IMG/VR virus record: IMGVR_UViG_2778261300_000003
Source: a virus
Taxonomy: Duplodnaviria; Heunggongvirae; Uroviricota; Caudoviricetes
Reading direction: 5' to 3' (one strand)
Length of the DNA stretch: 16,753 nt
A model generated the notes under the pieces. That model was not told the origin of the DNA. It saw nothing but the letters and a program-made list of their open reading frames with translations, and ran no database searches. Shown piece after piece: positions 2,367 through 12,004 of this stretch (positions are counted from its first letter, which is position 1; each line of letters starts with the position of its first letter). The translations under genes were made by a program, and so were the position numbers.

Positions 2367-2600
2367 ATGTCAACGAAGAACAGAACCCGCAGAACAACAA
2401 CCCGCAACATCCGCTTTCCTAACCAAATGATTGAACAAATTAACATCGCTCTTGATCAAAAAGGGTCCGGGAATTTCTCAGCCTGGGTCATTGAAGCCTG
2501 CCGCCGGAGACTGTGCTCAGAAAAAAGAGTTTCTCCTGAAGCAAACAAAGAAAAGAGTGACATTACTGAATTGCTCAGAAAACAGGTCAGACCAGATTGA
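2367..2600 (+). CDS. ynfO: YnfO-like small protein (77 aa), possible ribbon-helix-helix DNA-binding fold
   Basis: ATG at 2367; translation MSTKNRTRRTTTRNIRFPNQMIEQINIALDQKGSGNFSAWVIEACRRRL... Basic N-terminus followed by a strand/helix/helix pattern. Position next to cos matches the small ORF at the lambda right end and K-12 Qin ynfO (from memory). Confidence 0.55.
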   Translation: MSTKNRTRRTTTRNIRFPNQMIEQINIALDQKGSGNFSAWVIEACRRRLCSEKRVSPEANKEKSDITELLRKQVRPD

Positions 2601-2657
2601 AGCAATTTAGATAATCGTGCAGACTACGCCCCCTCATATCACATGGAAGGTTTATCT

Positions 2658-3068
2658 ATGGATCAGGTAGTCATTTTTAAACAAATATTTGATAAAGTTC
2701 GAAACGATTTAAACTATCAATGGTTTTATTCTGAGCTAAAACGTCACAATGTCTCACATTACATTTACTATTTAGCCACAGAGAATGTTCATATTGTATT
2801 AAAAAATGATAATACAGTGTTATTAAAGGGCCTAAAAAACATTGTGTCTGTCAAATTTTCAAAGGATAGGCATCTTATAGAAACGACCTCTAATAAGCTG
2901 AAATCCAGAGAGATCACATTTCAGGAATACAGAAGAAACCTTGCTAAAGCAGGAGTTTTTCGGTGGGTTACAAATATCCACGAACAAAAAAGATATTACT
3001 ATACCTTTGATAATTCATTACTATTTACTGAAAGCATCCAGAAAACTACACAGATCTTACCACGCTAA
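2658..3068 (+). CDS. DUF1398-family protein (YdfO/YbcV-like)
   Basis: ATG at 2658 with SD GGAAGG 8 nt upstream (the ORF track starts earlier at 2643). Translation [47 protein letters not shown]... resembles K-12 prophage YdfO/YbcV as recalled. Confidence 0.65.
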
Positions 3069-3219
3069 ACCATAACGTCCGGCTTCTCTCACTCCTGAGC
3101 CGGACTGCATTGGTTTAATAAAAACCATCAACAATTGTGATTTAGATATTCGGAACCATTCAAATATAACAAAACCCCGTAAAAACGAGGTTTATGGATA
3201 AATTTTATTATTGAATACA

Positions 3220-3396
3220 TCAGATTAAATTAATCTTGACATCATAGCTTTCAAGACCCGTCATTTTTTCCCGTGCGGTAAACTGAATACTGGTAACTTC
3301 TTTCCCGGTCTTTTTCTTAAGTTCAATAATTTTTTTTGTTATATATTCAGAAATATCTGCTTCTGCTTTTGTTTTTAAGTTTTCAATATTCATCAT
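3220..3396 (-). CDS. gnsB: GnsA/GnsB-family small protein (58 aa), not in the supplied ORF track
   Basis: Hand-translated minus strand: ATG at 3396-3394, TGA at 3222-3220; MMNIENLKTKAEADISEYITKKIIELKKKTGKEVTSIQFTAREKMTGLESYDVKINLI. Closely resembles GnsA/GnsB (about 57 aa) as recalled. Confidence 0.6.
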   Translation of the reverse strand: MMNIENLKTKAEADISEYITKKIIELKKKTGKEVTSIQFTAREKMTGLESYDVKINLI

Positions 3397-3564
3397 TTCC
3401 TCTTTTAGTCTGTTATGACTTTCCAGTTACACAGTAAGTCGATTATATGGTGCAAACGTGTAAAAGATAAGATGAAACATCGCAATAATCAACATACGAT
3501 AGTCTAAATTTTACACAAACAGACAAAGAGAATTTTCCTGAATTATCAATGCAATAGCATCAAA

Positions 3565-3795
3565 TCAACTCAAGAGCCTTATTGCTGCTTCCACAATTTC
3601 TTCTGAAGTAACATGTCGATCCGCGGCTACATAAATGACTTTATGATCTCCGGTCAGAGATGGAAACCCTGCGGCCATTACAGTAAGGTGTGTTTTTTCG
3701 CCATTTGGATATTCACGCATGATGGTGTTAACTCCAGTCATCGCTGGCACTACCACTGCTGGTTCAGAGTTAAAAAAAACTATGATTTTTTTCAT
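3565..3795 (-). CDS. Hypothetical small protein (76 aa); positionally equivalent to K-12 Qin ynfN, identity not established
   Basis: ATG at 3795-3793 (the ORF track start at 3837 is a TTG); MKKIIVFFNSEPAVVVPAMTGVNTIMREYPNGEKTHLTVMAAGFPSLTGDHKVIYVAADRHVTSEEIVEAAIRLLS. No strong SD. Family not recognised with confidence. Confidence 0.4.
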   Translation of the reverse strand: MKKIIVFFNSEPAVVVPAMTGVNTIMREYPNGEKTHLTVMAAGFPSLTGDHKVIYVAADRHVTSEEIVEAAIRLLS

Positions 3796-3839
3796 GATGT
3801 TACCGTAGTATGTGAGTATCCATCGAATAGACACCAAGC

Positions 3840-3875
3840 AAAAAAGCTCCCGAAGGAGCCTTCATTTTCACTTTT
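3840..3875 (-). terminator. Short hairpin with flanking A/T runs, candidate terminator about 200 nt downstream of the cspI-like gene
   Basis: gctcc cgaa ggagc (3846-3859), a 5-bp stem with 4-nt loop, preceded by aaaaaa on the plus strand, which is UUUUUU after the stem on the minus strand. Confidence 0.3.
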
Positions 3876-4066
3876 TCAAATCCAACGACAGACGGCTGGC
3901 ATTTAAGTATTGTGAAATATTATCAAATGTAATCATCATTGATTTACAAAAGATACATTTTGCCCCGAAAGGATTCATGTCAGAAACATCAAAAGATGAT
4001 GTTCTATACTGGGAACCATGACAACACGGGCATCTAAAGTGAATATGGTTTGTAATATTGTCTACC

Positions 4067-4279
4067 TCAAAGCGCCACTACATGAACAGCGGCAGGACCT
4101 TTAGGTCCGTTCTCAATACCAAATTCAACTTCCTGATTCTCAGTTAATGTTTTGAAATCGTTGCTCTGAATTGCTGAGAAATGGACAAACACATCTTTGC
4201 TGCCATCTTTCGGCGTGATGAAACCAAAACCTTTTTCAGGGTTAAACCATTTCACTAAACCAGTCATTTTGTTAGACAT
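4067..4279 (-). CDS. cspI: Cold-shock protein, CspA family (CspI-like)
   Basis: ATG at 4279-4277; [53 protein letters not shown]... carries the RNP1 motif KGFGFI and RNP2 VFVHF of the cold-shock domain. Confidence 0.85.
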
Positions 4280-4640
4280 AATTATTACCTTTTGAAGAAA
4301 TTAGCCCTTGGGCAGAATGGTCCGAAAAAAATATCAGAGAGAAAAACCAACAAGGAAATCTCAAGAGGTACAAATAATAAAATTATAACAATGACTGCTT
4401 CAGATAAATTTGTAACAAACCAGAACACCATTAACGCATGATTAACCACCCATAGCAAGGATTACTTTTGTAAAGAAAAACACAGCAATGAAAGAATAGC
4501 TTTATTTATTAATAAAACGTGTCATTCTGATTAAGACCTTTTATCTTACCCTTAAGATTTCAGGAATTTTGGCTCATGGAAGAGTCCTTTTTATTTAAAT
4601 TTTACATTCCGCGATGTAAATGTTCCGATTTAATATTACC

Positions 4641-5664
<1,024 letters not shown>

Positions 5665-6196: not shown

Positions 6197-6415
6197 ATCC
6201 TCACCCCGATGTACACGGATGGTGCAATATGTTTGAAAAGATCGGAGTCTACGGGGTAGTTTTGACAGCACACGTTGTTCTCAACGGCGCTAAAAAAACA
6301 TACACATTAAAAATGTGGGTAATTATTTTGAAAGAAAGTCATATATAAAATAATAATACGAGAAATGTTTTCATATTTAGTGTACTGTATACGGCCATTT
6401 ATACAGGAAAAGCCT

Positions 6416-6586
6416 ATGTCAGAACGTAAAAACTCAAAATCACGCCGTAATTATCTCGTTAAATGTTCCTGCCCAAACTGCACCCAAGAGTCAGAACACA
6501 GTTTTTCAAGAGTACAAAAAGGTGCCCTTTTGATCTGCCCTCATTGCAACAAAGTATTCCAGACAAATCTTAAAGCTGTAGCCTGA
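6416..6586 (+). CDS. Small zinc-ribbon protein (56 aa), possibly YnfU-like
   Basis: ATG at 6416 with AGGAAA upstream; MSERKNSKSRRNYLVKCSCPNCTQESEHSFSRVQKGALLICPHCNKVFQTNLKAVA has two Cys pairs (CSCPNC ... CPHC) typical of a zinc ribbon. Oriented opposite to the late genes. Confidence 0.45.
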   Translation: MSERKNSKSRRNYLVKCSCPNCTQESEHSFSRVQKGALLICPHCNKVFQTNLKAVA

Positions 6587-6670: not shown

Positions 6671-6949
6671 GATTGTGGTGCTTTTTGTGGGAGTCATCCA
6701 CTTACGCACTTTGTTTTGCCATGCCAGCAGTTAGCTTCTGCTGTAAAACTATTCATGCAGCAAACCTGCACTTCACCACAATGGTTAGCATACTTTTCCT
6801 GATTAAGATTTTGCCAAATATGCTAGCCATTGTTTCATGTATTGGACCTCCTTACTTTTTATTAAAGAGATCCAATATTCACTACTCTGTCCGTATCTCT
6901 ACTCAGGCCTCAGCCTTCTTCGTTATCGTATACAGACGAGCGATGAATT

Positions 6950-7165
6950 TTAATCAGTAATGATGACATTTGCTGCTGCAGGACCTTTAGCACCACTCTC
7001 TATAGAGAAGGTAACCTTTTGACCTTCAAATAAGGTTCGATAATTATCATTCTGAATCGCAGAAAAATGCACAAACACATCTTTACTACCATCAACAGGA
7101 GAAATAAAGCCGAAACCTTTATCAGCGTTAAACCATTTTACTAAACCAGTCATTTTATTTGACAT
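6950..7165 (-). CDS. cspB: Cold-shock protein, CspA family (CspB-like)
   Basis: ATG at 7165; [71 protein letters not shown] with RNP1/RNP2 motifs. Confidence 0.85.
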
Positions 7166-7465
7166 TCTACATTCCTTAACTTGAGCCTTTCGGCATAAAT
7201 GGTTTGCATAACAGAAACGACTTCGTACTTAATTGGAGAGACTCAAAGAAGGAATAAGTGAATAACACCTGAAATGAGAACTGCTTTAGTAAACTACTTC
7301 GTATATCGTCTGTTCTTCAAACCGACGCAATCATTAACGCATAGTTGAACATATGAAGCAATGTTTATTTTAGACATCCAGCCATCTTCAACCCCATCAA
7401 AAAACTATAGCTTTCTTCAGGAACGTGTGTATAGTGCGCCAAGTTATCAGTATTAAGGAATTTTT

Positions 7466-7678
7466 TTGTCCCGTAAAATGACAGGAATTGTCAAAACCTT
7501 TGACGGCAAAAGCGGCAAGGGTCTTATCACCCCATCCGATGGTCGTATCGATGTCCAGCTTCATGTTTCAGCGCTCAATCTCCGCGATGCAGAAGAAATT
7601 ACCACCGGATTACGCGTGGAATTTTGCCGGATAAATGGTCTGCGTGGCCCTTCAGCTGCCAATGTTTATCTTTCATGA
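7466..7678 (+). CDS. cspF: Cold-shock-domain protein, CspF/CspH-like (divergent from cspB)
   Basis: [70 protein letters not shown]. The first codon at 7466 is TTG with SD AAGGA 7 nt upstream; the first ATG (7478) is too far from the SD. Confidence 0.8.
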
Positions 7679-7970
7679 GCTATATTAAAGCTTTAATTTC
7701 AGGCCCCATCGGATCACACATGGAGAGTTTTTATGAATAACCCCGTCTGTCTTGATGACTGGTTGATTGGCTTTAAAAGCTTATGCTGTACTTTGGCCGT
7801 AATAGCTCTGCTAATAATATAATAAGCAGACTCATTGTGTTTAGGGACATTGTCCTGGAAGAAAACATTTTAAACATCAGGCAAATAACCAAGTCACCAG
7901 CTAAATAATAAGTTAACAGACATGAGTCCCGGGATGAGATTCAACATTACCATTGCCCCATTTAAAGCAC

Positions 7971-7995
7971 AAAACCCGCTCATCAGCGGGTTTTC
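7971..7995. terminator. Bidirectional intrinsic terminator; on the minus strand a tR'-like terminator of the short late-promoter transcript
   Basis: aaaacccgct-catc-agcgggtttt followed by ctactttttc on the plus strand; the reverse complement gives the stem followed by uuuugugcuuu. Confidence 0.6.
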
Positions 7996-8034
7996 TACTT
8001 TTTCTTAACGTCGGGTATACAAAGCCCATCGTTG

Positions 8035-8070
8035 AAAAAATTTTATCCATATTTTTTGAAAAATGCAAAC
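8035..8070 (-). promoter_or_regulatory. Candidate late promoter (pR'-like), with expected Q-utilisation region, immediately downstream of Q
   Basis: Minus strand reads TTGCAT (plus 8063-8068), a 17-nt spacer, then TAAAAT (plus 8040-8045). It starts about 30 nt after the Q stop and about 60 nt upstream of the terminator at 7971-7995, the classic Q / pR' / tR' arrangement. Sigma-70 match judged by eye only. Confidence 0.4.
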
Positions 8071-8099: not shown

Positions 8100-8852
8100 T
8101 TATCTCGTCACCTTCCTCAATTGCGCTTCCGCGTATGCTTCTTCCTGCCAGCACTTTGTTACCAGTTTACCAATGACGTCCGCATACCCCTTATACCACT
8201 GATAATCGGTCAGGTCTGGTACCAGCTTCTGGACATGACGTCGTGCCAGCGTGGTCGGTAAACGACTAAACCGGTTTCCATTACAACGCCCACAAATCTT
8301 ATATACCGGTACGCCATGAAACCGGGTTCTTTTTTCATCCAGAACAATCCCTTTACCCTTACACCCTCTGCACGCTGTGCTGGCTTCGCCCTTACCATGG
8401 CAATGCTGACATAGTTCCTTCACCCATTCTTCCTTGATTACAGATTCCCCGCGTCTGTAGTGTTTCACCACTTCGCGCAATACATTATAAAATCCCGTAC
8501 CTGAACAATGCTCACAGCGAGCCTTACTTGCCGCAGACCTGGAGTAATCAGCAAAGGCAAAACTCACGAGGTAAGGAATAATCTGTAACCGGATTTCTTC
8601 ACTCAATTTGTTCAATGTCGGGTTATCCAGTGCCATCGCGTAATTTAGCAGGCCTTCAATCGCAAACTGAGGGTCCTGAACACCAACTTTTGCCAGAAAT
8701 AAGGCCAACCCAAGTGGTGCTTTCGACTGCACCATCCCCTGCGCTGCCATTACATCCGTAATTGTTAAACAACCGGTGCCTGTCGCTGGAGCGTCATCGC
8801 TCAATTTTGGAGATTTTGGGGAGTAATATTTTGGTAAGGCTTCAAGGTTCAT
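8100..8852 (-). CDS. Late-gene antitermination protein Q (Q21/Q82/QuuQ-like), 250 aa
   Basis: ATG at 8852 with SD GGAG 8 nt upstream (the track ORF starts at a TTG at 8882). Cys/His-rich zinc-binding region (CEHCSGTG ... CQHCHGKG ... CRGCKGKG ... CGRCNG) and position just upstream of the late promoter and lysis genes. Confidence 0.8.
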   Translation of the reverse strand: MNLEALPKYYSPKSPKLSDDAPATGTGCLTITDVMAAQGMVQSKAPLGLALFLAKVGVQDPQFAIEGLLNYAMALDNPTLNKLSEEIRLQIIPYLVSFAFADYSRSAASKARCEHCSGTGFYNVLREVVKHYRRGESVIKEEWVKELCQHCHGKGEASTACRGCKGKGIVLDEKRTRFHGVPVYKICGRCNGNRFSRLPTTLARRHVQKLVPDLTDYQWYKGYADVIGKLVTKCWQEEAYAEAQLRKVTR

Positions 8853-11946: not shown

Positions 11947-12004
11947 TTTCTGGTGACGTTTGGCGGTATCAGTTTTACTCCGTGACTGCTCTGCCGCCCT
12001 TTTT
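11947..12004 (+). ncRNA. dicF: DicF small RNA (ftsZ-targeting antisense sRNA)
   Basis: tttctggtgacgtttggcggtatcagttttactccgtgactgctctgccgcccttttt matches DicF as recalled; it ends in a GC stem (ggcgg...ccgcc) plus U-run and lies between ydfC and dicB. The upstream 330 nt is GC-rich and structured. Confidence 0.7.

Follow-up and report, generated by a model that had tools for sequence, protein, structure and literature searches.

A 29-codon ORF downstream of cspF in a lambdoid phage sequence is ynfS, a known small protein gene of Qin-type prophages

Introduction

Does the 29-codon ORF that follows the cold shock-like gene cspF in this phage DNA encode a genuine protein, has it been described before, and what might its product do? 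An earlier note on the window (the whole stretch of 16,753 nt analysed here) had presented the ORF as an unannotated gene for a small hydrophobic prophage protein, possibly a toxin or a regulator, which it did not recognise. We address these questions with sequence searches, published translation data and a comparison of homologous loci.

Results

The ORF and its ribosome-binding site

The ORF starts with an ATG at 7733 on the plus strand and is closed by a TAA at 7820-7822, with a second TAA immediately 3’ of it. As described before, GGAG (7722-7725) precedes the start codon with a spacer of 7 nt (AGTTTTT). The reported location between the cspF stop codon (7676-7678) and a bidirectional terminator is likewise correct: the ORF begins 54 nt past cspF, and the hairpin follows another 148 nt beyond its end. 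The local features are as follows.

7466 to 7678, plus strand: cspF, cold shock-like protein CspF with a TTG start (NCBIfam NF012007 CspF, 160 bits; RefSeq K-12 locus)
7679 to 7732, plus strand: cspF-ynfS spacer of 54 nt, partly conserved, with indels between E. coli and Citrobacter
7722 to 7727, plus strand: Shine-Dalgarno sequence GGAGAG, 5-7 nt 5’ of the ATG, read from the sequence
7733 to 7822, plus strand: ynfS coding region, 29 codons plus TAA (identity to K-12 YnfS, Pfam PF23697, conserved frame)
7823 to 7970, plus strand: variable 3’ untranslated region, unconserved and with indels; Citrobacter loci have no homology here
7971 to 7994, both strands: bidirectional intrinsic terminator with a 10-bp G+C-rich stem, a 4-nt loop and a T-rich tail on both strands (terminator scan)

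The encoded peptide consists of polar residues 1-10, a conserved core L-x-D-W-L-x-G-x-K-S-x-C-x-T and a hydrophobic C-terminus; its cysteines are C6, C18 and C19. Residues 11-29 reach a mean Kyte-Doolittle value of 2.46, consistent with one transmembrane helix behind a polar head as proposed in the earlier note.

Taken by themselves, these sequence features show no excess over chance. Within 2.5 kb we count 53 ORFs with a length of 20 aa or more, and the pattern GGAG-N5-9-ATG occurs 10 times in the window where 8.2 occurrences are expected. Hence the case for a gene stands on comparative data and on published experiments.

Identity with YnfS and published evidence for translation

It is practically certain that we are dealing with ynfS, a gene known before from lambdoid prophages of the Qin type. 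DNA and protein are 100% identical to an annotated CDS of E. coli K-12 MG1655, WP_120795389.1 (‘hypothetical protein’). Since RefSeq carries the exact ORF, it was wrongly called unannotated. A Pfam search with the window protein returned the YnfS family (PF23697) as its sole match, with 80.9 bits (E=4.7e-23; gathering threshold 27 bits) and residues 1-29 aligned to positions 1-29 of the 29-position model. The peptide that had not been recognised is thus YnfS of the Qin prophage.

Moreover, the protein agrees letter for letter with the YnfS sequence in Table 1 of PMC6001520 (VanOrsdel et al. 2018). In that paper ynfS is listed with cspF / ydfT, coordinates 1642122-1642211 and 29 aa. The authors report detection of YnfS by chromosomal SPA tagging and immunoblot as well as a positive signal of the ORF in tetracycline ribosome profiling. 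For ynfS, Weaver et al. (2019, bioRxiv 10.1101/511675) describe ‘strong start peaks’ in the presence of retapamulin and Onc112, along with detection of the protein in stationary phase. The map position fits as well: the ORF lies between cspF and quuQ (8100-8852, minus strand), as is the case for Qin-type YnfS.

Taken together, the identity with published YnfS, the RefSeq entry and the Pfam match mean that the ORF is not new: a known small protein gene, already verified by experiment, has been found again. What stands of the earlier description is that of a genuine small hydrophobic prophage protein gene, borne out by the conserved frame (see below) and the published translation of the identical K-12 sequence. 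In a 2024 survey (PMC11551758) ynfS still counts as one of the uncharacterised ‘y-ome’ genes in Qin. Our literature search for a functional study of YnfS, including overexpression toxicity, found none, and sequence searches against PHROGs, PADLOC, NCBIfam and PDB gave nothing useful.

In comparison with K-12, the window has the same protein, ORF DNA, Shine-Dalgarno sequence, flanking genes (cspF upstream; quuQ/ydfT downstream on the opposite strand) and terminator. Two SNPs separate it from the K-12 Qin prophage in 7400-8000, both outside ynfS, and the distal prophage structure is different. The window differs from MG1655 at 7669 (T; a synonymous minor allele in cspF codon 68) and at 7854 (C). 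The best complete E. coli genomes cover 87-88% of the window with 99.3-99.7% identity. Given this limited coverage, the distal prophage structure differs. The window is not K-12 but derives from a Qin-like prophage carried by another strain.

Variation among E. coli-type copies

Homologues were gathered using degenerate DNA patterns together with a cspF anchor. Of 5,426 complete E. coli genomes, about 1,400 contain the region 7400-8000 (megablast). The 125 E. coli-type copies in IMG/VR differ little from each other: we found nine ORF alleles with neither an indel nor an internal stop, and in a single copy the start ATG has become ATA. cspF and ynfS are conserved as a unit in these loci. Mean nucleotide diversity (pi) is 0.0195 in the ynfS ORF versus 0.098 in 7823-7970, and the jump occurs directly past the ynfS stop codon.

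In the E. coli clade, ynfS shows 1 synonymous and 8-9 nonsynonymous changes, versus 19:12 for cspF in the same loci (Fisher p=0.009). As the changes are mostly nonsynonymous, the E. coli sample alone is no evidence of protein-level constraint. Judged from these counts the changes look neutral, and constraint may be relaxed in this clade. The 1:9 pattern could stem from a relaxation of constraint in prophages that are defective, from diversifying selection or from small-number noise. The substitutions fall almost entirely on positions which also vary between clades.

Citrobacter homologues and selection on the protein

To retrieve diverged homologues, we scanned a single genome of each species using CspF as anchor and then ran tblastn. 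This yielded the following Citrobacter YnfS proteins.

MYQKIYLNDWLTGLKSSCCTLIVTLLVFI
MNQTVYLSDWLTGLKSLCSTIAMTILLFI
MYPKIYLNDWLTGLKSSCCTLIATILLFI
MYPKIYLNDWLTGLKSSCCTLIVTTLSVI

The Citrobacter ORFs have exactly 29 codons and a GGAGAG Shine-Dalgarno sequence, and are located 60-66 nt past a cspF of 83-87% identity. Their products share 52-59% of the amino acids with the YnfS of the window and clear the Pfam YnfS cut-off with 32-37 bits. A second pattern scan added 22 further Citrobacter-type copies from IMG/VR, all intact. Length, Shine-Dalgarno sequence, place after cspF, cassette and core motif are common to both groups. Unlike the window YnfS, the Citrobacter proteins carry Tyr and not Cys at position 6, the terminator follows about 15-25 nt past the stop codon and the adjoining Q alleles are different. 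A pattern scan for more clades, in which residue 12 is neither I nor T, gave one chance match. The taxonomic range is thus narrow: ynfS was found in Escherichia/Shigella and Citrobacter only.

DNA homology between E. coli and Citrobacter spans from the Shine-Dalgarno sequence to exactly the stop codon; the ORF is free of indels and both flanks contain them. The GGAGAG motif is invariant in all aligned E. coli and Citrobacter homologues. Over 161 copies (21 haplotypes) all 29 codons are kept, with no indel and no internal stop, and variable sites are distributed as 15/11/24 over the three codon positions. Omega of ynfS is 0.23 as pairwise mean and 0.20-0.24 among unsaturated Citrobacter pairs; cspF yields 0.07-0.11 for comparison. 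In the largest Citrobacter clade (‘MY’), a minimum-spanning tree gives 14 synonymous and 9 nonsynonymous codon changes, where about 23% synonymous changes are expected under neutrality (binomial p=1.8e-4). These substitution patterns indicate that YnfS is under purifying selection, at least in Citrobacter, and that the reading frame is conserved. The earlier note had named frame conservation in related prophages as a check; with 29 codons throughout, omega of about 0.2 and the Citrobacter ratio of 14:9, the frame is indeed kept.

Citrobacter meridianamericanus lacks the 5’ half of cspF, but its ynfS ORF (907-993 on the minus strand of the examined locus) is intact and adjoins ynfU and an integrase fragment.

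Transcription and flanking elements

cspF and ynfS are presumably located on one transcript. A promoter and terminator scan of the plus strand at 7679..7732 revealed no promoter-like or terminator-like site, which suggests co-transcription. The spacer together with the ynfS ORF folds with a z-score of -0.84, indicating no unusual RNA structure. The hairpin at 7971-7994 folds on the minus strand with -30.5 kcal/mol (z=-4.6). It is invariant among the E. coli alleles.

On the minus strand just downstream of the Q gene, a promoter-like sequence TTTGCA-18-TAAAAT is found at 8040-8069, with the hairpin about 45 nt further on. By sequence and arrangement the two elements look like a lambdoid PR’/tR’ pair producing a short 6S-like RNA, and, read on the minus strand, the hairpin is probably the tR’ that goes with the late promoter past Q. 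With such a pair at this place, Q-modified late transcription would run antisense through ynfS and cspF.

The cassette and its losses

The gene order in K-12 is rzpQ, rrrQ, ydfR, essD/essQ, ynfU, cspB, cspF, ynfS, ydfT/quuQ, ydfU, rem, hokD, relE, and the surrounding genes, together with DicF farther on, identify a Qin-type lambdoid prophage. In Citrobacter we find ynfU (+), cspB (-), cspF (+), ynfS (+), a terminator, Q (-) and DUF968 (-), with Q alleles that differ. One order beside different Q alleles fits a mobile accessory cassette of ynfU, cspB, cspF and ynfS, whose right-hand junction would lie just past ynfS. The cassette is flanked by the Q antiterminator gene on one side and by the lysis genes on the other. 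ynfS is its last gene, cspF precedes it in every intact cassette examined, and the direction of both opposes late transcription. AZT induces cspF (PMC11228462). Further elements of the window are listed here.

4040 to 4424, minus strand: cspA-type thermoregulator leader upstream of cspI (Rfam, 114.2 bits)
6365 to 6586, plus strand: ynfU, YnfU-family CxxC zinc-binding small protein (NCBIfam NF038384, 78 bits)
6934 to 7326, minus strand: cspA-type thermoregulator leader upstream of cspB (Rfam, 158.8 bits)
11948 to 11999, plus strand: DicF sRNA (Rfam, 76.7 bits)

In the cassette that Citrobacter keeps along with ynfS, ynfU, likewise a recently named small gene, comes first. ynfS is also carried by the isolated temperate phages HannyBb, PhiR42_1, PhiR63_1 and 2H10. 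HannyBb and PhiR63_1 have about 1.9 kb of extra DNA between ynfS and Q (3588-5560 and 2588-4560 of the examined loci, respectively), annotated with numerous tiny hypothetical ORFs only.

A ynfS-like ORF is absent from the chromosomal paralogue locus cspH-cspG, where similarity ends at the csp stop codon, and the chromosomal cspH-type gene of C. sedlakii beside icd has no ynfS either. In decayed cassettes a frameshifted cspF is joined to the terminator region by a deletion (window 7670..7928), and ynfS is lost. This fusion was found in about 216 E. coli genomes and in E. ruysiae (at about 1975-2300 of three examined loci); RefSeq still names the remnant ‘cspF’.

Discussion

A proposed membrane peptide of the lysogen

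On balance we consider it probable that ynfS is a cassette gene expressed with cspF in the lysogen; the likeliest role of its product would be that of a membrane peptide modulating a larger membrane protein. ynfS would share with cspF a promoter that the lysogen keeps active and be translated from its own strong Shine-Dalgarno sequence, and the transcript would end at the bidirectional hairpin. The C-terminal 19 residues (L11-I29) would insert into the inner membrane as a single helix, placing the interfacial motif D9-W10 and K15 near the membrane surface. A small/polar stripe of D9, G13, S16 and T20 may serve as face for helix-helix contacts. Through it YnfS could bind and modulate a larger membrane protein, like other enterobacterial membrane proteins of less than 50 aa, and it would not kill the cell.

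The conservation pattern is in line with such a role. The invariant residues L7, D9, W10, L11, G13, K15, C18, T20 and L26 concentrate where the head meets the helix and in the helix’s first half; its C-terminal half changes in sequence yet is always hydrophobic. On a helical wheel D9, G13, S16 and T20 lie within 60-120 degrees, i.e. on one face. The chain ends within the hydrophobic stretch, and the uninterrupted hydrophobic core after K15 comprises 14 residues only, which is short for a membrane span. The pattern as a whole points to a peptide that is anchored in the membrane and offers a specific surface for contacts, and not to a non-specific membrane-damaging toxin. The specific proposal of a C-terminal inner-membrane helix whose contact face modulates a larger membrane protein is tentative, with a chance that we put a little short of even.

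AcrZ, MgtS, MgrB and CydX form a class of enterobacterial single-helix membrane regulators of less than 50 aa. YnfS resembles them in size, in its one predicted hydrophobic helix, in a conserved small/polar helix face and in a synthesis that is constitutive or condition-dependent and would be free of toxicity. Different from them, it has no sequence relationship to the class and is prophage-borne; its membrane localisation is predicted and its partner putative.

Alternative explanations

A type I toxin-like peptide, which damages or depolarises the membrane when in excess and is held in check by an antisense RNA, is very unlikely. TisB and ZorO have 29 aa and ShoB has 26 aa, and YnfS resembles toxins of this type in length and hydrophobic C-terminus; a prophage or accessory location is common for them, and hokD and relBE are found in the same prophage. 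Type I toxins are normally silent, mostly through a structured leader which masks the Shine-Dalgarno sequence. YnfS, however, is readily translated and detectable from the chromosome during ordinary growth in LB and has strong initiation peaks according to the published data. Leader and ORF are no more structured than shuffled sequences, with no sign of a repressive leader, and the Shine-Dalgarno sequence is strong and invariant. The one antisense candidate, a weak promoter-like match (9/12) on the opposite strand (7843..7814), might give a transcript complementary to the 3’ part of ynfS, but its two hexamers are both altered in the other E. coli allele and Citrobacter lacks the region. As the site is not conserved, a type I toxin-antitoxin system driven by it was rejected. 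Comparison with known toxin families (Hok, Ldr, Ibs, TisB, ShoB, DinQ, Zor) gave no match: in Pfam only YnfS was hit and PADLOC returned nothing, neither toxin nor defence family. Moreover, the conserved part of YnfS is a specific interfacial motif and it is the hydrophobic tail that varies. The toxin role suggested in the earlier note thus finds itself opposed by normal chromosomal expression, the lack of a conserved antisense RNA gene and an ordinary mRNA structure. A holin, antiholin or spanin was also considered and finds no support: Q and essQ/rrrQ/rzpQ are encoded on the other strand, and ynfS has no lysis-family match. The sole match in PHROGs was insignificant (E=0.12) and belongs to a family of unknown function.

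A phage-facing membrane factor of the lysogen, which would cause superinfection exclusion by blocking DNA entry or modulate holin triggering and lysis timing, is unlikely. The position of ynfS between Q and the holin gene is a classic moron site, and with an orientation opposite to late transcription and its own terminator it would be expressed in the lysogen. Besides, the gene is present in viable temperate phages, and the nonsynonymous excess in E. coli would suit a target of an arms race. Against this, no PADLOC defence model or annotated PHROG was matched, ynfS is off the lysis-operon strand, and it is always linked to cold-shock-family genes and not to lysis genes. We assign a similarly low probability to YnfS being a lysogenic-conversion factor with a specific target, which would alter the biology of host or phage by superinfection exclusion, by setting the time of lysis or by a membrane function tied to the CspB/CspF cold-shock cassette; the nonsynonymous excess in E. 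coli would then be diversifying selection and not decay. Quite unlikely is a peptide without function of its own, which would be made only owing to a good Shine-Dalgarno sequence in the 3’ region of cspF and the translation of which would matter at most in cis, e.g. by shielding the cspF mRNA against Rho or RNases. The E. coli ratio of 1 synonymous to 9 nonsynonymous changes is compatible with neutrality, the taxonomic range is narrow, one copy has no start codon, ynfS is lost along with decaying cspF, and a Shine-Dalgarno sequence with ATG and short ORF is no rarer than chance. Such a peptide is hard to reconcile with the Citrobacter data (14:9, p=1.8e-4; omega of about 0.2 between clades). 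Nine residues are invariant despite 52-59% identity, the length is kept exactly and without ORF indels while both flanks carry indels, and the E. coli substitutions are nearly all at positions variable between clades. The neutral-looking E. coli polymorphism keeps the reading as a minority view. A mere chance ORF has practically no probability left. Short ORFs and Shine-Dalgarno-like motifs are indeed common by chance in the window, but the published tagged protein and initiation peaks, the conserved frame and omega of about 0.2 refute it.

Conclusions

Publications of 2018-2019 already cover the gene, its product and its translation, and RefSeq, EcoCyc-derived lists and Pfam include it, so ynfS is no new discovery and the residual novelty concerns function only. 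For the function of YnfS, the starting points are the mobile lambdoid cassette of Escherichia and Citrobacter, the core motif, and the purifying selection seen in Citrobacter versus the neutral-like change in E. coli.
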